In this document: in pieces, positions 2,416 to 53,603 of the stretch
Layout: every line of letters starts with the position of its first letter
Numbering within the stretch: position 1 is the first letter of the stretch
Origin: an uncultured Verrucomicrobiota bacterium
Lineage (GTDB): Bacteria > Verrucomicrobiota > Kiritimatiellia > JAAZAB01
Assembly: GCA_964463985.1 (NCBI GenBank)
Contig: CAYXEK010000007.1
Location: 3,404 to 67,403 of the forward strand
Direction of reading: 5' to 3'
DNA: 64,000 nucleotides
The notes under the pieces: model-generated
Seen by the model: only the letters and a program-made list of their open reading frames with translations
Databases searched by the model: none
What the model was told of the DNA's origin: nothing
Translations under genes and position numbers: made by a program

Positions 2416-5400
2416 TCAATCAATTTCCAGACGGTATAACCTGCCCGCGCTCCAGCCCCAGGGCGCGGCGTTATCCCCAGCCGCCAGCAGTCGCAAGCCC
2501 GGACAAGCCGCCTGCCCGAGCGCTTCGCCGGACAGATTTAAAACATGGACAGTCCCCGCCTGGTCAGAGGCCAGCAAGGCCACCCCGGCGCGCACGAATT
2601 GCGTGACCGGCGCCGGCAACAGCCGATGCCAAAGCCTTTGTCCTTCCAGATCGTGCGCCGCCACAAATCCCAGCCTGGTGGCGGCAAATATCCGTTCGGC
2701 GCCGGCATCAAAAGCCACGCCGGCCGCTTCGCCGCCCAGGCTGCTTTCCCACATCCGGCAACCGCTGAATCGCCGGGGGTCATCCGCCGGCGCATGCTTC
2801 GGAATATGCGCCTTGATGGGATAGGGCGACAAATCGTCCAGCCGCGCCAGGTCGAATAATTGCAGGCTTGGATCGCAGGTCGCGGCGGCGGCGACCAAAA
2901 CACGTTTTCCGATGGCCGCCGCCGCGATTGCTGAACAAGCGGCGCCTACCGGCGTCAGGGAAGGCGGCGCGGCCACAAATCCGCCATCCAGATCAAGCAA
3001 CAGCAAATGCGCGCGATACGCCTGCAAGGAAGCCGCCACCAGAATACGCCGGGCATCGGATTGACCATAACGTACAATCCGCAAGTGTCCCGGCAGGCCG
3101 AGGCTGGGAAACAGGACATGCCAGGTTTCGCGTCCCTCCTGGTCGTAGAAATGCACATAGCCGTCGCCGGTGCCGACCACGAAACATGCCTGGCCGGCAT
3201 GGCGCAAGCCAACACCCGCAACCACCCCGGCGCTGGGCGATTGCCACCAGGGCCAGGCCGTCTCGCGGTACGGGAATTCAAACTGCCTGATTTTTTCACC
3301 GGCGCCGGTGCCGATCCAGATTCCCCGCTCGCCGAATCCGGCGAGGACGTTTTGCAATGCACCGCCTTCGACATACCCGGCGACACAGCGCACCGGTCCG
3401 GCCACGTGCGCATGCCATACCGGTTTGCCCGATGAATCCAAGCGGATGATCCCGCCCTGTTCCGTGCCGGCCAGCATGCCGTCCGCCGCCGGTTGCAGGC
3501 AGGTTATCGGGCTTCCCGCGCTAAAAACGGGAGTAAGGCGAATCTTTCCGAGGCCGGCGGCATCTGCCTGCGCGGGACGGACTGCCGGCCGGTCATGCCG
3601 GGGCGCGGACGCCCCGGCTCCATCGGGAACAATCGCGGCATATGCTTGTTCCGGCCAATCGCGCAAAATCCAGGGTGTTTTACCGCCGGCAACCGTCAAC
3701 TTGCCGTCGGTCACCTGGAGCCGTAACTCCGGCTCCTCCGGCCCGCGGATTTGCGCGATATGCGCCAGCTTCAGCACACCGCCCGCACGCACCGCGCCTC
3801 CCATCCGCGTCCGGCACTCGGTGAGCGCATAGGACTGGTTGTGATACCGTTCCTCCCAAACCCGGCGCCCGGCTTCCGTCTCGCCCCAGGTTTTGTCGGG
3901 CGCGACCGACGCGGTCATCCTCGCGCCTTCCGCCGGCAGGCCGGCCAGATGAAAATCAACGCGCGCGCCGCCCGGCGCCTGGCAGCACCAGCGCAAAAAG
4001 CGGCCTGCCAGGGACGCCTGGCCGGGGACACGGAATATGGCTTCGGCCGCGTAATCGCCGGCCACGCGCGCAGCGATGGTGTCGCACACCACCAGGACGC
4101 CACCGGGACGCAGGTAAATTTCACGCGTCCAGTCCGCGCCGCCATAATCCGGCAAGGTCATCCGCAAATATGCCGCGCCGTCCGCCCCGTATTCCCGCGC
4201 TTCCAGCCGCGCATATTCCGGCGATGGCCCGATTTCAGCATCGCGCACGATGATCATGTCGGTATTCAGCCCGTTTTCCATGTTCGCGCCGACCAGGCAC
4301 GACACGCCGAACCGGGCATAATCCAGGATGCCGCAGGCATCGTTGAACGAATGCCCGCCGCCGGTGATGCCGTCCAGCAGCAGATAGTCATCGTCGCGCC
4401 GCCAGCCGGCGCGCACAGCGATCTTGTCAAAACATTGCGCCAGCGGCACGTCAGGCGGCGGCTGGTTAAGATATTCAGCAACATTCGGCGGATAGCTGGC
4501 GTATTTATTGTAATATGCCGGGTCCACGGGAATCACGGTGATGCCGATCTGGCCGCGCGGTTCGACCGGCGCCACGCCATTGTCAAACGCCCGCAGAAAC
4601 CCCACCGGCGCCCGCCAGGTCAGGCGCCGGTGCAGCGGCGCCAATTCATGCACAAAACGGTAGCGGCCGTCATTGAACCAGGCGGCCGCGGTGCGCAAAG
4701 TCGGCCCGGGAAACTGCCGGTACAAATCCGAATGACCCGCGGACGGCATCCAGCCGTCGTTATTGACGATCGCAAGCGCGCATTCGGCGGCGGCGCGCGC
4801 GCCGCCCTCGTTGTAAAACCGGTGCCCGGGATCAATCAGGCCATAAAGCACAATGGCCGGTTGGGATAAAAACCAGTCATGGCACAAGCCGTCGCAGCCA
4901 TCCTTCCAACTCGACCGCAGGTTGGCGTAAGTCTGATCCGCAATGCGCCGCCATTTCTGCGGTTCCGTCAATCCGGGAAACCGCGCCTTGAAAAACTCCG
5001 AGACATACACCAGCGCCAGCGCGGGAATCAATTCATGGTTGCTGCGCGGCGTGGCCGGGCCATTGCTCGCGCGGGCTTGATTGACAATCGCGTATCCCTC
5101 CGGCCCTTCCGCCCAGTCATGGATATACCTGTAAATCAACGCCCGGTCATCCGGTGTAAACGCACCCATCAATTCACAAAGCATGAACGGCAGGAATTTA
5201 TTCAGGCTGGGCAGATGCATGCATTTCAGGGTCAGATATTTCCGCCAGACCGCGTGGTATTCGGCGCCCAGTTGTTCCTCACCGGTCAGATAGTATAAAA
5301 ATCCTTTCCAGTCAGCATTGGTCAGCCCGCGGTCCATGAAGATCTCATCGGGATTCAGGCGCGCTTCCCGGATTTCACGGACATGGTCATCAGCCATCGG

Positions 5401-7926: not shown

Positions 7927-9069
7927 TCATGATTGCAGCAAAACCTCCGACATGGCCCGGACATTTTCCGCCGAGGTCCCCGGCAAAATGGCGTTCCCCG
8001 GTCCATGCACATAGCGCCGGCCGGCGCTTTCCGCCAATACCCGCGCGCAGTAATCCCGCACCTGCCCGGCCGATTGCCGCAGCAGGACATCCGAGCTGAC
8101 ATTGCCCCAGACATTCAAATCCGGGTAACACGCGCGCAGCCTGCCGACTTCCATGCCGGCGTCGCGATCCACCTCGCCGTAATCGGTAAAACCCGCCTCC
8201 TGGAACAGCATGTCCGTCACTTTCCAAAGATTGCCGTCCGTGCGCCAGATGTAATGCAGGTTCAATTTCCGGCAATGCGCCGCCAGTTTTTTGACGCGCG
8301 GCAGCATCAACTGGCGGAAGATTTCCGGCGAATACAGCGGCCCGTTCTTGTCGGCCATGTCGCCGCCGCCGGTGGCAATGCGAAAGCCATTGGCGGCCAG
8401 GACATCCAAAGCCGCCAGCGACAATTCCAACTGGCAGTCCAGGATATCGGCCACCGCGCCGGGCTCCAGCAGCGAAGCCATCAGGGAAGCCTCGTCCACA
8501 CCGACGGCGATGCCGCCGCCGCGCGCGGCGTATGCGAATTGACCGGCCGCCATGTTCCGGAAGGCGATTTCATCCGCCGCGTTTTTTTCGCGGATCAGGG
8601 CCAGCCGTTGCGGCAAATCCGCCTGCAGGCGCCGGGCGCGCGCCGGCCAATCCGCGACCGTCACAGGCGGCTTGGTGTTTTCGATTTCCACCAGCCAGAG
8701 CGCTTTGGGGTCCCATTGCCAGACTTCATGCGTTCCGCCGGGATGCTCGAAAACAAAGGTATATTCATCCAATTGCCGGCTGGGCCGGCGTCCGCCCAGG
8801 TTGCGCAGCGGCAGGCGGATCACATCCCATTTCAATTCCCGGTGGATGGCGATCAAATCCTCAAACAATTTTTGTTCGAACTCGGCATGGGCGGCCTCGC
8901 CGTTCACCCAGGCCCGGCACTCGGCGAAGGATAGGGAATGATAGCCGGTATGCACCGGCCGGCCCAGGATGCCGGACGAGACGTCGCAGGCGATGGTCGG
9001 GCAATACATCGGCAGGCGATCCGCCGGCTTGCCGTCCAACACCGCCATCACCCGTTTTTCTGAATTCAT
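7927..9069 (-). CDS. Uroporphyrinogen decarboxylase (URO-D/MtaA) family protein, paralog 1
   Basis: 380 aa, URO-D/methylcobamide methyltransferase-like TIM barrel (C-terminal ...VWGNVSSDVLL... region). True start may be Met8 (MAVLDGKPADRLP, at 9048), which is about 25 nt after a TATAAT at 9071-9076 on the minus strand. Confidence 0.75.
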   Translation of the reverse strand: MNSEKRVMAVLDGKPADRLPMYCPTIACDVSSGILGRPVHTGYHSLSFAECRAWVNGEAAHAEFEQKLFEDLIAIHRELKWDVIRLPLRNLGGRRPSRQLDEYTFVFEHPGGTHEVWQWDPKALWLVEIENTKPPVTVADWPARARRLQADLPQRLALIREKNAADEIAFRNMAAGQFAYAARGGGIAVGVDEASLMASLLEPGAVADILDCQLELSLAALDVLAANGFRIATGGGDMADKNGPLYSPEIFRQLMLPRVKKLAAHCRKLNLHYIWRTDGNLWKVTDMLFQEAGFTDYGEVDRDAGMEVGRLRACYPDLNVWGNVSSDVLLRQSAGQVRDYCARVLAESAGRRYVHGPGNAILPGTSAENVRAMSEVLLQS

Positions 9070-9094
9070 TATAAATCGTTTGATGTGTTATGCC

Positions 9095-10705
9095 TTACTG
9101 TTTTTTTTTAAAATCATAATTCGCTTCATGATCCCGCCACCATGTTTGCCAATCTTCCAACAATGTATTATACCCGCGATCGGGGTAAATGACGCCGCGA
9201 TATACATACGCGCCGGTGGCGTTTTCCAGTGCCCGGTTGATGGCATTCAACGTCACAGCATCCCTGCGATGTGTTTTCCGCGGGGTTTGCCCCAACAGAT
9301 CAAACAAAGCCGCAATGGCTCTCCGGTCGCCCTTCATTTGTCCTAGGGCGCGGATAATCGTCAACCGCGACTCCGCCGCCGCCCGCTGTCGCAGGTAAGG
9401 GGGATTTAGTTCCAGATCAGCCAGCGCAGCAACAAGGGCGGGCACGGCGGCATGATCGCCGATATTTCCCAATCCCTCTGCGGCGGCATCCCGCACGGAG
9501 CTTTCTGTATCGCGCAATGCTGTTTGCAACGGGGCTAAGGCCCCCGCCCCCATTCCGCTCAGGGCTTTTGTCACCGCTATCCTTACGTCGGTGTCAGCGT
9601 CATTCAGAAGCTCGCTCAGGGCCGCAATACTGTTTTCAGCCTTAAGTGAACCCAAAGCCTCAACCGCCGTCTCCCGCAAGCCAGCAGAGTCATCCGTTAA
9701 AAGCGCGATCAGCGGCGGCGCGGCGCGTTTATCGCCAAGGTTGCCCAAGGCAGCGGCCGCAATAATTCGTAAATCATCATCCGTGGAATCGTGCAACGCA
9801 GCCAGCAGTGGTTCAAAAGCCTGCGGGTCGCGTGTCTGTATGCGTCCCAGAACCTCTGCCGCATGCCGTCGCCCCGCGGCTTCCGCCGAATGCAACGCAC
9901 GTATCGCTAAACCGGCGGCTGGCTCCCCCAGCCAGATCAAAACCTCCGTTGTTTCCGTCCGCTTCTCGGGGTCAGGCGCAGCCAACCCCTCCACCATGAA
10001 ACCGCCCAGATCTTCGAGCATTTCCGCCAGTTGCACCGGCGGCAGGAGTTGCCGCAACGACCAAACGGCCCGCTCACGCACGATCGCATCTCCATCGTCC
10101 AATAACGGAATCATGGCAGCGCATATTTCCGGATCGCCGGCACGCCCCAGCGCTTCCACCACCGCGACCCGAATAGACGGTGTTTCATCCTGCAACAAAT
10201 CAACCAGCGCTTGCGAGGCCGTATTACCGCCGATCATGCCCAGCGCCCGGATGGCGCGCAGGCGCGTATCCGCGCGTTGTGCGCGCAAGAAGCGCCGCGC
10301 TTCAGCTGCCGCGGACGGGCCTAAACGCCCCAGCGCGGTCTCGGCCGCCGCGCGCACAAAACCGTCATCATCGTCCAATAGTTCCGCCAATGGCGCAGCG
10401 GCGCGGTCGGCACAGATTTCGCCAAGCACCCAAGCCGCAAGCCGGCGCGTATCGGCCCGGTCGTGGCGCAAAACCGCAATCAAGGGAGTGACGGCCTGTT
10501 CGCCCGTTGCGACCAATTCCACGGCCGCCTCCGCAGGCGGGTCGTATTCCAGGCGGCCCGGTTGTTCTTCCAATAGTTGCCGTATTAAAGCCGCCACATC
10601 TCCGCCTGCATCAAAACGATTGACTGCTTCCGCCGCGCAAAAGACCGTCCGCAACATCCACACGGACACAATCACTGTTACGCAAATAATGCGCGCTATG
10701 CTCAT
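9095..10705 (-). CDS. HEAT/PBS-lyase repeat protein with N-terminal membrane anchor
   Basis: Repeated (D/E)xxVRxxAxxALGxIG HEAT-like units along the sequence. Start ATG at 10705 overlaps the stop of the upstream gene (ATGA), implying translational coupling. Track ORF extends to 10774. Confidence 0.8.
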   Translation of the reverse strand: MSIARIICVTVIVSVWMLRTVFCAAEAVNRFDAGGDVAALIRQLLEEQPGRLEYDPPAEAAVELVATGEQAVTPLIAVLRHDRADTRRLAAWVLGEICADRAAAPLAELLDDDDGFVRAAAETALGRLGPSAAAEARRFLRAQRADTRLRAIRALGMIGGNTASQALVDLLQDETPSIRVAVVEALGRAGDPEICAAMIPLLDDGDAIVRERAVWSLRQLLPPVQLAEMLEDLGGFMVEGLAAPDPEKRTETTEVLIWLGEPAAGLAIRALHSAEAAGRRHAAEVLGRIQTRDPQAFEPLLAALHDSTDDDLRIIAAAALGNLGDKRAAPPLIALLTDDSAGLRETAVEALGSLKAENSIAALSELLNDADTDVRIAVTKALSGMGAGALAPLQTALRDTESSVRDAAAEGLGNIGDHAAVPALVAALADLELNPPYLRQRAAAESRLTIIRALGQMKGDRRAIAALFDLLGQTPRKTHRRDAVTLNAINRALENATGAYVYRGVIYPDRGYNTLLEDWQTWWRDHEANYDFKKKQ

Positions 10706-13700
10706 CACTCCTCCTTGTCCGTCCTGGTTTCCACGAAGGCCGCTGATTGAACGTCGTTGACGGAACGCGGGCATGCATCCATTAACGCCAGGCCGTGTTG
10801 CGGCATCACATCGTTCGTGAAGGCACGGTCAACCAGAATCCGCCCTTCCGCAGCTATGCGAATTTCCCCTCCCACTTCGCCGGTCTTGTTCAAGCTCACG
10901 GTGTATTCCCGCGTTCCGACTTTGAAGCGCACCCCAGCACAACCAGCGGCGTCAATCAGTTCACAAGCGGCCATCGCCGCAGCGGATGCGTTGCCAACCT
11001 CGATCAAGTGCAAGAAATGATCCTGCTCCCGCGCCGAGCCAGGGCGCACCTCGATCCGCCACCGGCCAACCTGCTCGCAAACATGCCCATCCTCATCCAA
11101 AATTCCCCGCAGCCAATGTTTCGGCAGACTTGGCGGGATCGCCCAGTTTCGGTTCCCGGCCCAGAATTCCCGGCCAGGCCCGCCGACCGCATGAACCGCC
11201 GCATCCTCGGGCAACAGCGTCCGGCAGAATATTTTCCCCTGGCCTTGCACGGCGGAAAACTCCCGTCCGCGTATCGCCGGCTCATTCGCCGTGTGCAGCA
11301 GCCATATCTTCGGATATTCGGCGCGCCGCGAAACCACGCGGTCGAACACCACAAAATGATTGGGCGGCAGAAAGATGAACTGCCGGATCATCTCCGCGCA
11401 TTTATTCGTGTGGTAAACGGGCGTGGCATCCGTTGCCATGTAAGCAAAGCAGCAATCGCTTTCGAACGCCAGCAACTTCGCGTCGCTGGGATATCTGCGC
11501 TGCCCGCCGCTGTTTACCGCACCGTTCGGCATTTCCTCGTCTGCCATATAAATCAGCACTGCGTTATGCGCCACAGTTTGCATATCGTAATGCCGCCCGG
11601 GCGCGCCCGCATGCAACATCGCCCTGGTTCCGCTGTCCAGCGCCAGCCATCCCTTTTTATAGATCGTGAAATGCGTCGTATCGAAATGCGCCTCACTGCG
11701 GCTCGCGCCCCCGGAATATAGCGCATAGGTATCTCCAAGACTAAAGCCGGAAGACATCAGGATAACGCCGCCGATTTCGAAATGGCGCGCTATCGGCATG
11801 CCTGGCGGAATGGCAGCGGGCGGCGCTGCCGCGATATCGATCAGAAATGGGAAAACAGGGAACTGGCCGGCGCCGCCGCCAACGCCTTCTCTTGAGATTC
11901 GTTCCCGCAGATGGCGGGCGATCGCCGCCTGCTCCGGAGATGTCGCGCTGAAGAAATACATGCTTCGCGCCAGATGATCATAAAGCAGTTGCGTTGGCTG
12001 TCCGTCGGCCTTGCGCCAGGAGCGCGAGTAGCCGAAATGCAGCAAGCCCGGATTAAAGCCCAGGGCATTGCGCAGGATGAAGCCCGGTGAAACCACATGC
12101 ACCAGTTCCGGCGGAATGCGTTTCCCCAGCGCCGATTCCCACATGTGCAATACCGGCCACAGTTCGTTCTGCCCTTCCGCGGTGTTATAATCCACCAAAC
12201 CGTGGGTTAGATGGCCCGTCAACCCCTCTTCCAGACGGAGTTTGATGTCGCCGCCATAAACATGCAACCATGCATCGCGCGAAAGAATTTCCAGCGCGCG
12301 CGTGTGCGCGACATCATTGAGATCATCGTCAATTATAAACATGCCCGCGTAACGATACACGTTGCGTTCATAGTAAGATGTATAATGACCAGCTTGTCCA
12401 ACCATTTTATCCTCGCAATGCAAAGTGTACACATATTCCAGCAAATCCGCGCGCAAGGATTCCCGCTCGCTCGGCGGCAGAGCATCCCACACCCAGTCCA
12501 ACGCCGCCATAAAGGCGATCCGCGGGTAACTCCGGCAGCGGGTAACCGTACGCGAAAGAAAATAGTCCATTGTTGCGCGCAACATCCGGCGCACCCGCGC
12601 CAGCGTCGCTTGGTCGCGCGTTACGCGGTAAACAAACGCCGCCTCCATCGCGCGCATTCCCCATTCCTCCGGCTGATTTGCCCAGGACGCGCCCTTCCCT
12701 TCCCATGAATCGAAAATATTCGGCGAGTCCGGCGCATATCCGGCGACACGCGCGCGCATGGCGTCAAAATGAGAGCGCTCGCCACTCAGCGCGCGTTCCA
12801 TCACGCAAGGCCAGCTATCCGCATTAAAAAACATCCGCGGCCTGTCATGGCGCAGGCGCGGCAACTGACGCAAGGTCTCGCGCGCCTGCCTCGCCCGCAA
12901 ACCTATTCCGGAACGTTCGGACACCCCTTCCATATCCAGAATTTTATCCAGTTCGCGTTGCGCATCCGTGTAACGCCGATCATGAATATAAGACCACGCC
13001 CGCTGATAAGCAGCGTCCTGCAACAGGGAGGCCGTCATTCCGCAGACATCATCCGGTGGCGTCACGCCGCCGATCTCCCCAAAACGCGCAATTTCCACCC
13101 GGTCAAATTCCTGGCGCGCCTCTGACGCGCGGCCCTCCGCAAGATATGCCATGCCTATCCCCAAGACCGCCCGCCCGCGTTCGACCGCACGGTGGCGCAC
13201 CGGTGCGCCACCGCCCGGCACATCAACCTCCGCGAGCGCCTCCAACACCCGAAACAGGCCGCGGATACCTTCGTAATCATCATCCCGGGGATCGTTCAGC
13301 CGCGCTTCCGCCAGCCGCCGCAGCGCTTCGAATTTTTGATCGTAATTTTCCGCGGCACGGACAGCCATCTCATACGCCTCGCGGAGCGCCTTAAAATCAA
13401 TAGCGCCTTTTACAAAAAAACCGCCGTGCGCAAGCAATTCGCAGGACCAGCGCATTGCTTCATCATAGGCGGAAGAATGGCGGCAACTATTCGGATTGCC
13501 CGCCGCAAAGGCGAATGAGGCGCTACCTCGCACAATGGCAGCCGCCAGGATGTTTTCGCCCTGCTTCAACGCGAGATCGAAAACATGGTTGTCCGCACGG
13601 ATTGGCGATTTCTTATTGCCATCATCAAGAGTGTCAAACACCGGCTGGCCGTTCAACCACCATTGCATCCACCAGTCGGCGCCGGCGCCCATCCGCAGCG

Positions 13701-14061
13701 TGGCCATCTCGGGCGCCTCGATAACGGCAAACAAATAGATTGTCGCGCCTCTCGGATTGTGTTCCGTAAGCGCATCGAAATCAACCGCCTGTCCGGGCGG
13801 ACAATCAAGCTGGCGCGCCTGGTAAACCTTTCCATTTATCTCAAGTTTTGACGGGATCGCCTTCATATTCTCGCCGGAGAGCAACATGGAACGGCGTGGA
13901 CTTCCGCCCGGCGCAAAGGTGTTGTCCTGTACCACCGGACCGAACACGGTCCATTTCGCCGGACATAATCCGCGGGAATCTGTTGCCGCGGCAAGCGTCG
14001 CCTGCCCCCACATTAACCCAGGCAAAAACAACATCCTTGCCGCAGTCTTGACAAGTTTCAT
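10705..14061 (-). CDS. Large (1118 aa) secreted heparinase-II/III-like / alginate-lyase-fold protein with N-terminal beta-sandwich
   Basis: Signal peptide MKLVKTAARMLFLPGLMWGQATLAAA. N-terminal galactose-binding-like sandwich. C-terminal GWLALDSG...HAGAPGRHYDM...AHNAVLIY resembles the Hepar_II_III domain. Confidence 0.75.
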   Translation of the reverse strand: MKLVKTAARMLFLPGLMWGQATLAAATDSRGLCPAKWTVFGPVVQDNTFAPGGSPRRSMLLSGENMKAIPSKLEINGKVYQARQLDCPPGQAVDFDALTEHNPRGATIYLFAVIEAPEMATLRMGAGADWWMQWWLNGQPVFDTLDDGNKKSPIRADNHVFDLALKQGENILAAAIVRGSASFAFAAGNPNSCRHSSAYDEAMRWSCELLAHGGFFVKGAIDFKALREAYEMAVRAAENYDQKFEALRRLAEARLNDPRDDDYEGIRGLFRVLEALAEVDVPGGGAPVRHRAVERGRAVLGIGMAYLAEGRASEARQEFDRVEIARFGEIGGVTPPDDVCGMTASLLQDAAYQRAWSYIHDRRYTDAQRELDKILDMEGVSERSGIGLRARQARETLRQLPRLRHDRPRMFFNADSWPCVMERALSGERSHFDAMRARVAGYAPDSPNIFDSWEGKGASWANQPEEWGMRAMEAAFVYRVTRDQATLARVRRMLRATMDYFLSRTVTRCRSYPRIAFMAALDWVWDALPPSERESLRADLLEYVYTLHCEDKMVGQAGHYTSYYERNVYRYAGMFIIDDDLNDVAHTRALEILSRDAWLHVYGGDIKLRLEEGLTGHLTHGLVDYNTAEGQNELWPVLHMWESALGKRIPPELVHVVSPGFILRNALGFNPGLLHFGYSRSWRKADGQPTQLLYDHLARSMYFFSATSPEQAAIARHLRERISREGVGGGAGQFPVFPFLIDIAAAPPAAIPPGMPIARHFEIGGVILMSSGFSLGDTYALYSGGASRSEAHFDTTHFTIYKKGWLALDSGTRAMLHAGAPGRHYDMQTVAHNAVLIYMADEEMPNGAVNSGGQRRYPSDAKLLAFESDCCFAYMATDATPVYHTNKCAEMIRQFIFLPPNHFVVFDRVVSRRAEYPKIWLLHTANEPAIRGREFSAVQGQGKIFCRTLLPEDAAVHAVGGPGREFWAGNRNWAIPPSLPKHWLRGILDEDGHVCEQVGRWRIEVRPGSAREQDHFLHLIEVGNASAAAMAACELIDAAGCAGVRFKVGTREYTVSLNKTGEVGGEIRIAAEGRILVDRAFTNDVMPQHGLALMDACPRSVNDVQSAAFVETRTDKEE

Positions 14062-18850: not shown

Positions 18851-18907
18851 TATTTCAGACCCCATCATTCCCAACACCGCCATCACCCGTTTTTCTGAAT
18901 TCATTAT
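18851..18907 (-). pseudogene. Remnant duplicated 5' end of the URO-D-family gene (MNSEKRVMAVLG...), 19-codon fragment
   Basis: 18873-18921 plus 19043-19052 are near-identical to 9038-9093 (promoter, ATG and first 11 codons of the gene at 7927-9069). The copy is interrupted by a MITE at 18922-19042. Confidence 0.6.
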
Positions 18908-18921
18908 AAATCGTTTTATGT

Positions 18922-19042
18922 GATCCAATTTTAAAAGTCTTGGCCGGCGTGAAAGCCGGCCCTCCAAGAATACAAAAACCGCAGGTTTTTGGAAGTTTGG
19001 GTTACACCCCAGCCGTTCTGTGCGGACTTTTGAAATTGGCTC
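18922..19042. mobile_element. MITE-like element copy A (~121 bp)
   Basis: Terminal inverted repeats GATCCAATTTTAAAAGTC...GACTTTTGAAATTGGCTC. Flanked by direct ATGT (18918-18921 and 19043-19046). Paralogous uninterrupted site at 9076-9090 carries a single ATGT. Internal hairpin ccggcgtgaaagccgg. Confidence 0.75.
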
Positions 19043-19078
19043 ATGTGTTATGGTTTAAAAGTTTTATGGAGGAAACAT

Positions 19079-33070: not shown

Positions 33071-34228
33071 ATGAATATGCACTTTCACGAACAATTTCAA
33101 AAGTTCTGTCAAAAAGGTCGGGGTGTAACCCGACTCTTCAAAACCGGGTTGTGTTTTCGTTTTGGAGGGGCGACTTCCACGTCGTCCCGGACTTTCGGAA
33201 TTGGCTCTCATCCCCAGCGGAGAATACTCATTTGCGTTAGTTTGGGGCTATGGCTGCTGGCCGCGGCGGACGTCCCGGCCCAGTGGCCGGCGCACGTCGC
33301 GGAAGTAAAAATCGCCAGTTCGTCCGACGGTGTGGAACAACCGGCCATGTTTTACGCGCCGGCAGGAACCAATCCCATGCCCCTGCTGGTTTCGCTGCAT
33401 ACATGGAGCGGCAATTACCGGCAGGTCGCCGCCGCCCGCGCCAATTGGTGCCGGGCCAACCAATGGGCCTTCGTGCACCCGGATTTCCGCGGGCCGAACA
33501 AGACACCGGACGCCATGGGCTCGGATTTGGCGGTCCAGGACATTCTCGACGCCGTAGATTACGCCAGAACCCGGACCGCCATTGACGAATCCCGGATTTA
33601 CCTGGCGGGATTTTCCGGCGGCGGACACGCCGCCCTCCTGCTGGCCGGGCGCGCTCCAGAAATCTGGGCCGGAGTATCCGCCTGGTGCGGCATCTCCGAT
33701 TTGAAAAAATGGCATGCCCAGAGCCGCGGTTACGGACGCAGCATTGAAGCCGCGGTCCGGGGCAATCCCCAGCAGGACGCCCGCGCCGCCGCGGAATGCC
33801 GGCGCCGTTCGCCGGCGGCCTGGCTGGAAAAAGCCCGCCGCATTCCAATAGATATCGCCGCAGGCATCCATGACGGCCACTCTGGCAGCGTGCCGGTCAG
33901 CCAGAGCCTGGAAGCATTCAACCTGCTGGCGGACCCGGAGGACCGGCTCGCGGAAGCGGATATTGCTTACATTGCCCGCGAACAGGCTATCCCGGACCAT
34001 CTCCGGAAGGAAGGCGGGGGCCTGATGTTAAACAAATACCAGATTCATTTCCGCCGCCAGTCGGGCAACGCGCGTATCACAATTTTTGAAGGCGGCCACC
34101 AGGGACTGGACGGCGCGGCGCTGCCATGGCTCGCCCGGCAGCGCAGGGGCGCACCCGCAGTCTGGACCGCCGACGACCCGCCGGCGGATTTGCAAATCGG
34201 CGCGGACGCGGCCGCCACGGGAAAATAG
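33071..34228 (+). CDS. Alpha/beta-hydrolase (esterase/peptidase S9-like) with internal signal peptide; first ~46 codons are MITE-derived
   Basis: GFSGGGHAA nucleophile elbow and downstream Asp/His regions. Codons 6-46 of the annotated ORF are the MITE copy at 33088-33207. The hydrophobic RRILICVSLGLWLLAAADVPA segment follows it. Confidence 0.7.
   Translation: MNMHFHEQFQKFCQKGRGVTRLFKTGLCFRFGGATSTSSRTFGIGSHPQRRILICVSLGLWLLAAADVPAQWPAHVAEVKIASSSDGVEQPAMFYAPAGTNPMPLLVSLHTWSGNYRQVAAARANWCRANQWAFVHPDFRGPNKTPDAMGSDLAVQDILDAVDYARTRTAIDESRIYLAGFSGGGHAALLLAGRAPEIWAGVSAWCGISDLKKWHAQSRGYGRSIEAAVRGNPQQDARAAAECRRRSPAAWLEKARRIPIDIAAGIHDGHSGSVPVSQSLEAFNLLADPEDRLAEADIAYIAREQAIPDHLRKEGGGLMLNKYQIHFRRQSGNARITIFEGGHQGLDGAALPWLARQRRGAPAVWTADDPPADLQIGADAAATGK
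33088..33207. mobile_element. MITE-like element copy B (~120 bp)
   Basis: CAATTTCAAAAGT...ACTTTCGGAATTGGCTC termini (left TIR degenerate). Core gtcggggtgtaacccgac hairpin and cgacttccacgtcgtcc shared with copy C. Flanks tcac/tcat. Confidence 0.7.
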
Positions 34229-37201: not shown

Positions 37202-37345
37202 CCATTGCCCACTTTAATTCCCCAACCCATACCTGACGCGAGCTTGCGTCTATAATCCAAATGGAGGGCGGTCAGGCCCTTGCTCACCGATTACGAAGGC
37301 GCGCAGGGCCTGCGCGCCCAACCTTTTCTGTATATACAATTTATT

Positions 37346-37465
37346 GAGCCAATTTCAAAAGTCCTATCAAAAAGGTCGGGGTGTAACCCGACCCTCCAAA
37401 AACGGGTTGTTTTTCCATTTTGGAGGGACGACTTCCACGTCGTCCGAGACTTTTGAAATTGGCTC
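37346..37465. mobile_element. MITE-like element copy C (120 bp, best-preserved)
   Basis: Perfect 18-bp TIRs GAGCCAATTTCAAAAGTC / GACTTTTGAAATTGGCTC. Flanked by direct TATT (37342-37345 and 37466-37469). Internal hairpins gtcggggtgtaacccgac and ggacgacttccacgtcgtcc. Confidence 0.8.
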
Positions 37466-37545
37466 TATTGATTTTGTTTCGCATGAAAAGGCCAATCATC
37501 CTTTGTCAAATACGAGAAAATGACAAATACACTTGTTTTTTTGCT

Positions 37546-37640
37546 GTTGAATCGATTTTAAAAGTCAGCCTTTGCAAAAAGTATTCCGTAGAGCCTGTTA
37601 CAAAAGCAGCGGACTACGTGGAAGTCGTCTCTCCAAAATG
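37546..37640. repeat. Degenerate MITE fragment (copy E)
   Basis: TIR-like cgattttaaaagtc at 37546-37561, and core ggactacgtggaagtcgtctctccaaaatg at 37611-37640 matching the reverse complement of the MITE core. No right TIR. Confidence 0.4.
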
Positions 37641-37705
37641 CGGAATCAGCCATGCCTGATCCATCATGGCATAATTATTGCTTTTAAAGCTGTTTAAGGA
37701 TTAAT

Positions 37706-37746
37706 TTGCCTTTTACAGACATGCGGTTTATAATATTTTCATTATG
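37706..37746 (+). promoter_or_regulatory. Putative promoter of the pseudopilin operon; near-leaderless start
   Basis: TTGCCT (37706-37711), 17 nt spacer, TATAAT (37729-37734). ATG at 37744 only ~10 nt downstream and no Shine-Dalgarno. Confidence 0.35.
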
Positions 37747-53412: not shown

Positions 53413-53445
53413 GATTGATTCCCTTCTCAGATGAGCCATTTGCAT

Positions 53446-53552
53446 AAGTCTCGGTCAACGAAGAAGTCGTCCCTCCAAAATGGAAAAACAACCCGTTTTT
53501 GGAGGGTCGGGTTCCACCCCGACCTTGTGGCAAGGGTTTTTGAAATTTGTTC
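53446..53552. mobile_element. MITE-like element copy D (reverse orientation, one terminus truncated)
   Basis: Matches the reverse complement of copy C over aagtctcgg...cgtccctccaaaatggaaaaacaacccgtttttggagggtcgggtt(c)caccccgacc...tttttgaaatt. Lies 34 nt upstream of the GH29 start codon. Confidence 0.65.
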
Positions 53553-53603
53553 AGATGTAATAATTACCCGGTCCAAAGCTTGGCAAACGTGCGCGCAGCC
53601 GGT

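Follow-up and report, generated by a model that had tools for sequence, protein, structure and literature searches.

A sequence of about 120 bp recurs within a 64,000-nucleotide stretch of DNA from an uncultured Verrucomicrobiota bacterium of the class Kiritimatiellia (contig CAYXEK010000007.1, positions 3,404 to 67,403; hereafter the window), which raises the question of what kind of element it is, what moved it and where its interior came from. [quoted passage not shown] Our analysis indicates that the repeats are very probably non-autonomous MITEs, in which the ends of ISUnCu17-like insertion sequences (ISs) of the IS1182 family enclose a pair of repetitive extragenic palindromic (REP) units. 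Such units serve as substrates for REP-associated tyrosine transposases (RAYT). The MITE interpretation is based on the inverted ends, the 4-bp duplications, an empty site for one copy (A), the absence of two others (B and D) from close relatives, and the existence of ISs with the same ends. The REP identity of the internal hairpins, the occurrence of the ends in at least four bacterial lineages and the full length of copy D had all been missed in the initial annotation.

A profile derived from four of the copies was run over the entire window without any filtering. The search returned four full-length members (copies A to D) and one partial match at 37591-37650 (E=3e-7 for the minus and 0.019 for the plus strand), and nothing further at E<0.01 (Table 1). 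Thus, of the five copies originally counted, the repeat family itself is confirmed, and the number becomes four full copies plus a decayed remnant, designated E. The elements are short (120-121 bp), non-coding and multi-copy, with four copies and the remnant in 64 kb. Copy C is the best preserved: its inverted ends, GAGCCAATTTCAAAAGTC and GACTTTTGAAATTGGCTC, are complementary at 18 of 18 positions and lie between TATT flanks, exactly as had been reported. The inverted ends of copies A, B and D contain two to seven mismatches, and copy D differs from copy C at 7 of the 36 terminal positions. Copy D had been taken to be truncated, at 53446-53552; in fact it is full length with decayed ends and an exact AGAT duplication. 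Over their whole length, copies B and D differ from copy C at 17 and 16 of 120 positions, respectively. Faster decay of the ends than of the core was considered for these two copies and rejected, since the difference between end and core is not significant (p=0.39 and 0.24). The strand of copy A is ambiguous by score (83.6 bits on the plus strand and 74.7 bits on the minus strand), and we assigned it to the minus strand from the order of its linker and REP units. Remnant E corresponds to a fragment previously placed at 37546-37640. This sequence is a rearranged remnant with two end-like sequences (GAATCGATTTTAAAAGTC and GAGCCTGTTACAAAAGCA) and one inverted REP unit (GGACTACGTGGAAGTCGTC). In addition, the short-read assemblies of this organism break within the repeats, as is expected of a multi-copy sequence: of three independent contigs, two end within copy C at position 37373 and the third (L245) within copy D.

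Exact 4-bp target duplications flank three of the four copies (A, C and D). For copy A, we deleted the element and one ATGT in silico, joined the flanks and aligned the joined sequence to the window. It matched 9036-9092 without gaps, with 56 of 57 positions identical (E=4e-27), and the matched segment has a single ATGT, so that the uninterrupted paralogous site noticed earlier, at 9076-9090, is borne out. This segment comprises the 5' end and upstream region of a gene on the minus strand (7927-9069) and is the exact empty site for copy A. Its existence is due to the duplication, at locus A, of a 57-bp stretch from that 5' region. The duplicated piece at locus A (18871-18921 and 19043-19052) heads an open reading frame (ORF) of only 20 codons before a stop, with its ATG at 18905-18903. 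Homologues of a protein encoded in the window, two of them 88% and 82% identical and named as Kiritimatiellia, agree with the placement of the organism in that class, and the remaining comparisons were made with the same loci of relatives. Copy D is absent from the orthologous junction in GCA_964650945.1 and in the short-read assembly SRR8925805. There, the URO-D-like and fucosidase genes are 6 bp apart, compared with about 190 bp in the window, where copy D fills the spacer. Copy B is absent from the orthologous site in GCA_040775225.1, which has about 40 bp instead, including AGGAGG-N7-ATG, and the two sequences agree up to both boundaries of the copy. A homologous remnant E is present in GCA_040775225.1, and the remnant is therefore old.

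Table 1. Positions, strands and surroundings of the repeat copies and associated features in the window
Feature	Position	Strand	Target duplication	Neighbouring genes	Description
Copy A	18922-19042	minus (assigned)	ATGT at 18918-18921 and 19043-19046	GFO_IDH-type gene / CN-hydrolase gene	121-bp subfamily; profile E=4e-25
Copy B	33088-33207	plus		gene of unknown function / alpha/beta-hydrolase gene	120 bp; profile E=8e-37
Copy C	37346-37465	plus	TATT at 37342-37345 and 37466-37469	DUF1846 gene / prepilin-like gene	120 bp, intact; profile E=1e-39
Copy C, first REP unit	37374-37393	plus
Copy C, second REP unit	37426-37445	minus
Copy D	53433-53552	minus	AGAT (exact) at 53429-53432 and 53553-53556	URO-D-like gene (stop 52 bp away) / fucosidase gene (start 53412, 21 bp away)	120 bp, full length, decayed ends; profile E=1.5e-34
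Remnant E	37549-37662 (approx.)	undefined			rearranged, decayed copy
Paralogous empty site for copy A	9036-9092	plus			single ATGT at 9083-9086

A different element occupies the spot of window copy C in GCA_964650945.1. This element, about 260 bp long (L250, ~4359-4620; L numbers denote the contigs and loci collected in our searches), has related ends and the same right junction, GGCTC|TATTG, together with a (GTGTTCG)n minisatellite and extra internal end-like sequences.

The ends of the elements are not confined to this genome. A scan for the exact 18-mer GACTTTTGAAATTGGCTC in a collection containing one genome per species gave at least 116 loci; about 17 chance matches are estimated for a collection of that size. 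The counts in this paragraph refer to the matches listed, which recur in the same genomes of four lineages, namely Desulfobacterota (Desulfosudis, Desulfocicer and Desulfobacterium), Spirochaetota (Treponema, Rectinema and relatives), Victivallales and Kiritimatiellia. Here, the 18-mer and its inverted partner bound 76 short elements of 81-206 bp, with 122, 143 and 129 bp as the commonest lengths and with lineage-specific interiors. Both flanks could be read for 75 elements; an exact 4-bp direct repeat is present in 58 of these, and in 65 the flanks agree at three or more of the four positions. The duplications comprise 45 different tetranucleotides and lean towards AT. Termini and duplications, whose lack in copies across the genome had been named as a point that would speak against a mobile element, are thus conserved across 75 further copies.

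Some of these elements are simpler or differently built than those of the window. Minimal elements of 39 bp consist of two 18-bp ends and a 3-bp joint (GAGCCAATTTCAAAAGTCGGTCACTTTTGAAATTGGCTC; L036 1364-1402, and also L010 and L111). They come from Treponema and Rectinema genomes, and the spirochaete MITEs bear one such end hairpin at each extremity. The Kiritimatiellia genome AnMBR.bin297 contains elements of 154-155 bp (L009 4209-4362 and L077 3396-3550) with the same ends and another interior, in which a hairpin, a long central hairpin and a further hairpin follow one another, so that the three-hairpin layout recurs despite unrelated sequence.

The same ends also occur on ISs that encode a transposase. 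At L067 (Kiritimatiellae GH20), a DDE_Tnp_1 gene is directed towards an unpaired right end and stops about 180 bp short of it, and the homologues of the encoded protein form a large set of transposases of about 375 aa with DUF772 and DDE_Tnp_1 domains, many of them on contigs of 1.4-1.5 kb. L117 is an IS of 1445 bp with the ends GAGCCTCTTTCAAAAGTC and GACTTTTGAAATTGGCTC around a 384-aa transposase (P0002), and a 1417-bp relative is present four times (L119-L122), each time between exact duplications (TATT, AGTT, AAGT and AATT). The search for an autonomous IS with the same ends, which the initial annotation had proposed, was therefore successful in another Kiritimatiellae genome and in metagenomes. 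Three other candidates were rejected: the 1.9-kb end pair in L027 is not a long element but two separate MITEs around ordinary genes, and the single ends in L005 and L113 adjoin SWIM and HD-domain genes instead of a transposase.

The nearest annotated proteins, both from plasmids, are an 'IS1182 family transposase' (43% identity) and the transposase of 'IS1182-like element ISUnCu17' (37%). ISUnCu17 in pKAM643_2 has the ends GAGCCTCTTGCAAAAGGC and GAGTTTTGCAAGAAGCTC / GAGCTTCTTGCAAAACTC and an ATGA/ATGA duplication, and the earlier guess of an IS5- or IS1182-like parent agrees with these annotations, ends and duplication length. ISUnCu17 and similar short ISs of the IS1182 family resemble the window elements in the end consensus, GAGCC(A/T)(A/C)TT(T/G)CAAAAG, and in the variable, AT-leaning 4-bp duplication. 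They differ in being about 1.4-1.5 kb long with a single DUF772 and DDE_Tnp_1 transposase of about 375-390 aa, whereas the window elements are 120 bp long and have none. The window elements share only the 18-bp ends with these ISs, nothing beyond, and both MITE ends are of the right-end type of the IS. Because the transposases fall below all NCBIfam cut-offs, the family assignment is based on the annotation of relatives with 37-43% identity, the shared ends and the duplication length. Taken with these limits, the placement of the window elements as MITEs of the ISUnCu17-like branch of IS1182 is supported.

The interior of the elements has another source. The core has the layout GG-stem-GTGGAA-stem-CC CTCCA, spacer, TGGAG GG-stem-TTCCAC-stem-CC. 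Shared hairpins, and in copy A a different hairpin and a partly inverted, modular core, had been recognised before; they are real, and we explain them as REP units with covarying stems. The pair of stems is GTCGGG and GACGAC in copies B, C and D and GCCGGC and GTCGGG in copy A, which has a REP stem GGCCGGC...GCCGGCC at 18942-18961 plus a decayed GTCGGG unit. When metagenome contigs were scanned with core hairpin 1 (GGTCGGGGTGNAACCCGAC), at least 120 loci were found. At the loci listed, the copy profile matches over the core only and not over the ends; the following counts refer to these listed matches. We counted the loose pattern GG-N5-NTGNAA-N5-CC without requiring pairing, and full 5/5 stem pairing was present in 186 of 233 matches, compared with about 70 expected by shuffling. 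The paired units comprise 19 stem types, the loop is GTGGAA in 159, and the 3' tag is CTCCA in 106, CCTAC in 38 and CTCCC in 20. Read in reverse, CCTAC corresponds to GTAG, the canonical REP tag. The units thus combine the characters of a REP, that is, a GC-rich hairpin, a conserved terminal tag and a covarying stem.

The unit also occurs free of any ends, in tandem arrays of both orientations (L181, L136, L220 and L201). In L201 and L181 the arrays abut genes for two 45%-identical proteins with an HUH motif, which pass the NCBIfam RayT model (84.6 and 80.6 bits, respectively, against a cut-off of 80). Named homologues of this RAYT belong to Kiritimatiellae, Pontiellaceae and Verrucomicrobiota, and in L255 (Kiritimatiellae) a RAYT homologue is flanked on both sides by hairpins tagged TGGAG/CTCCA. 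The unit GGTCGGGGTGGAACCCGACC is identical in the tandem arrays that touch RAYT genes and in MITE cores. On these sequence comparisons, the MITE core appears to be an inverted REP pair, with tags pointing inward, of a RAYT system native to the class.

Alternatively, the internal hairpins might be generic GC-rich stem-loops that arose independently, their likeness to the RAYT arrays being coincidental. Other subfamilies with the same ends likewise have two hairpins and a central hairpin of unrelated sequence, so the architecture itself may be favoured, and the match of the L201 protein to Pfam Y1_Tnp is below the cut-off (20.5 against 23 bits). We nevertheless regard independent origin as highly improbable, in view of the loop, the closing GG/CC and the 5-nt tag that are kept while the stems covary across 19 types, the occurrence of GGTCGGGGTGGAACCCGACC on both sides of the comparison, the RAYT genes that pass the NCBIfam cut-off, and the existence of a GTAG-tagged variant.

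The RAYT genes themselves have some peculiarities. Those of L201 (2587-3117) and L181 (2266-2853) contain in-frame REP units at the same position, four of them in L181. RAYT homologues range from 131 to 277 aa, and this range suggests that in-frame REP insertions may be common in these genes. In addition, a 1346-aa protein of L201 (3481-7521) contains REP-encoded peptide stretches, for example GGTAPS and GVEPDPP.

If the core belongs to a RAYT system, the whole element could in turn be a REPIN (a REP doublet forming a hairpin) moved by RAYT, with the 18-bp 'ends' merely an extended outer stem of the palindrome. The core is indeed a REP pair such as occurs next to RAYT genes, and the whole element folds into one compact structure: copy C is predicted to form an 18-bp closing stem and three hairpins (z=-9.2 for either strand; -64.7 kcal/mol when folded as RNA), and the fold holds as RNA or as single-stranded DNA. 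It is largely lost in the older copies (z=-3.8 for B and -1.95 for D). Y1 transposases of the IS200/IS605 type are not known to produce duplications on insertion, whereas exact and variable 4-bp duplications flank the elements both in the window and, among the matches listed, in 58 of 75 elements elsewhere. Moreover, DDE insertion sequences have ends identical to these outer 18 bp, and elements of Desulfobacterota and Spirochaetota have the same ends around cores that contain no REP units. Free REP units, which a REPIN population would have in many extragenic copies, were found neither in the 64-kb window, where the units lie solely inside MITE copies, nor in about 60 kb from close relatives, and a RAYT query had no match in the window at E<=1e-3. 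Because of the DDE-type ends and duplications, and because free REP copies are missing here, we do not file the elements as REPINs and consider movement by RAYT extremely improbable.

Several observations weigh against the reading of the repeats as IS1182-type MITEs with a REP-pair core. The flanks of copy B, TTCA and TCAT, duplicate each other only in part, and comparison with the orthologue shows about 40 bp replaced at this site, not a clean insertion. Copy C is absent from GCA_040775225.1, where the difference is a larger indel, and a clean orthologous empty site for it was not obtained. The IS of L117 has no matching duplication. No NCBIfam family model reaches its cut-off with the transposases; the best, IS1182, gives 81-88 against 270 bits, and the IS5 models are likewise below theirs. 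Note also that 120 of the 186 paired units share one stem by construction, because the loci, all on metagenome contigs, were found by searching with that stem. Finally, no transposase of either kind lies within the 64-kb window, and mobilisation in trans is what we infer. The lack of a transposase gene there had been noted before; the best tblastn E-value for three related DDE transposases is 0.2.

If the repeats are indeed MITEs of this type, the following mechanism may be proposed. The two 18-bp ends would be the binding and cleavage sites of an ISUnCu17-like DDE transposase (about 375 aa, with DUF772 and DDE_Tnp_1 domains), supplied in trans by a full-length IS elsewhere in the genome, and such a partner is presumably present. 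The transposase would pair both ends and excise or copy the element, and insertion through a 4-bp staggered cut would leave the 4-bp duplication. The 84-bp interior is not derived from the IS. A REP pair may have been captured between two IS ends, or may have inserted into a minimal end-to-end palindrome, and would now be spread by the DDE enzyme. Copy C, as the only intact copy, may still be mobile.

The core is also combined with other ends. Among the matches listed, the REP-pair core was found with at least four kinds of end besides that of the window. Elements with the end CATGGTCTTTTCCTTTGGC are typically 143 bp long, with an exact 10-bp duplication in 5 of 6; those with GTTTCTGTTGCGGAAA are about 121 bp long, with a 6-bp duplication in 3 of 9; those with CAGCTATTCTCATTTTGGCC are about 143 bp long, with a 9-bp duplication in 1 of 7; and for those with AGCCTCTTGCAAAACCC, about 128 bp long, no duplication was recovered. 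Including the window type, duplications are therefore measurable in four of five lineages (4, about 6, about 9 and 10 bp), and the fifth differs in its ends only. Ends and cores recombine: one genome has two core types on one kind of end, and L155 (~776-960) is a hybrid in which the same REP-pair core lies between a CAGCTATTC... end and a CATGGTCTTTTCC... end, which suggests recombination between MITE families through the shared core. That REP pairs of a Kiritimatiellia/Verrucomicrobiota RAYT system repeatedly, and not by coincidence, became the interiors of MITEs in at least five unrelated DDE lineages is a tentative proposal that we would call rather unlikely at present.

We turn to the genes around the copies. 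All four copies lie between co-directional genes, 37-145 bp past a stop codon, and the gene pairs are unrelated to each other; a constant position beside one gene family, which had been named as the mark of a regulatory motif, was thus not found. This location nevertheless fits a conserved cis-regulatory or structural RNA (a riboswitch, attenuator, terminator or mRNA stabiliser) selected at particular genes, as does the very stable fold of copy C. Three copies, or four if copy A is on the minus strand, also share one orientation relative to transcription, which is not significant. Effects of REPs and MITEs on mRNA stability have been reported (PMC3733652). We consider a selected RNA very unlikely even so. 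Besides the unrelated neighbours, copies B and D are missing at the orthologous sites of close relatives, and the fold is much weakened in the same two copies. The sister subfamily of Desulfobacterales has no orientation bias (7 against 11; p=0.48). Rfam gave no match at the gathering score in the whole window, and under permissive settings over 37300-37700 the only matches were to generic hairpins, far below threshold. A scan for promoters and terminators around C and E found no terminator and no terminator-like T tract; two promoter-like sites (37706-37739) are not within the elements. With ARAGORN, no tRNA-like gene was called at any of the copies.

Individual copies may still have secondary effects on the genes beside them. 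In particular, copy B occupies the place of the orthologue's ribosome-binding site and start codon in the alpha/beta-hydrolase gene. An ORF (33071-34228) runs in frame through the copy (40 codons without a stop), and gene callers accept a protein of 385 aa. In this comparison, copy B has displaced the native start region of the hydrolase gene. The hydrolase orthologue has 342 aa and starts with a signal peptide; the only canonical in-frame start after copy B, a TTG at 33242, would leave a very short one. Since decay is even over the whole of copies B and D, the repeats are most simply read as selfish elements whose effects on their neighbours are incidental.

As MITEs, the window elements are ordinary. 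They resemble classical families such as Correia/NEMIS, RUP, ERIC, Nezha and MITEAba12 (PMC3733652, PMC10969869) in inverted ends, duplications, intergenic location, strong fold and dependence on a transposase supplied in trans. They differ from them in that the interior is a REP pair from another transposase system, and in that the ends are common to at least four bacterial lineages while the interiors are lineage-specific. With REPINs and their RAYT transposases (Bertels and Rainey 2011, PMC3116915; Nunvar 2010, as cited in PMC3733652), the core has in common its two short, GC-rich inverted hairpins, each with a conserved tag, and the clustering of units beside single RAYT genes. In contrast to REPINs, the window pair is bounded by DDE-type ends and a 4-bp duplication, without free units or a RAYT gene in the window, and, among the matches listed, the tag of the unit is GGAG (CTCCA) more often than GTAG. 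The closest precedent is a passing remark by Di Nocera et al. [quoted passage not shown] Those, too, are REP dimers inside a longer inverted repeat, present in many copies; as far as that section goes, they are reported without duplications, a transposase partner or a MITE interpretation. For the present elements, the outer repeat can be linked to a named IS family, and the same core occurs with several kinds of end. A physical association of IS and REP is also known in the reverse geometry. IS1397, ISKpn1 and IS621 insert specifically into REP sequences and bacterial interspersed mosaic elements (BIMEs), so that the IS lies inside a REP cluster; in the window, a REP pair lies inside IS ends.

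What is new here is a MITE family with a REP pair as cargo and with ends conserved across phyla. The end and REP sequences are absent from open-access text, against which alone the newness of the family was checked, and a keyword search of the literature for Kiritimatiellia MITEs found nothing relevant. One more repeat family is thereby known from an uncultured Kiritimatiellia genome, with a link to ISUnCu17-like IS1182 elements, and the finding joins two repeat systems that are usually treated apart, since REP pairs would be cargo of several DDE-type MITE families. REP pairs, as substrates of domesticated RAYT transposases, are regarded as vertically inherited, and for REPINs vertical inheritance is taken to be the only route. 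Cargo of this kind would give REPs a route of dispersal, and MITEs one of modular evolution, that can be tested. If the repeated uptake of REP pairs is no coincidence, the chimeras may be substrates of two transposase classes, or the REP pair may actively help the MITE to spread, for example by bringing the ends together or through nicking by RAYT; conversely, DDE transposons may carry REPINs from one genome to another. The near-unchanged 18-bp end in four lineages also shows how little of an IS is needed for long-term spread across phyla. In practice, such copies break short-read assemblies and mislead gene callers, as with the ORF through copy B.

One further observation concerns the window apart from the repeats. 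ARAGORN calls a tRNA-Ala (GGC) at 11001-11076 on the minus strand, where a long mechanical ORF (10705-14061) of that strand contains it. One of the two must be wrong, the ORF in its 3' part or the tRNA call.

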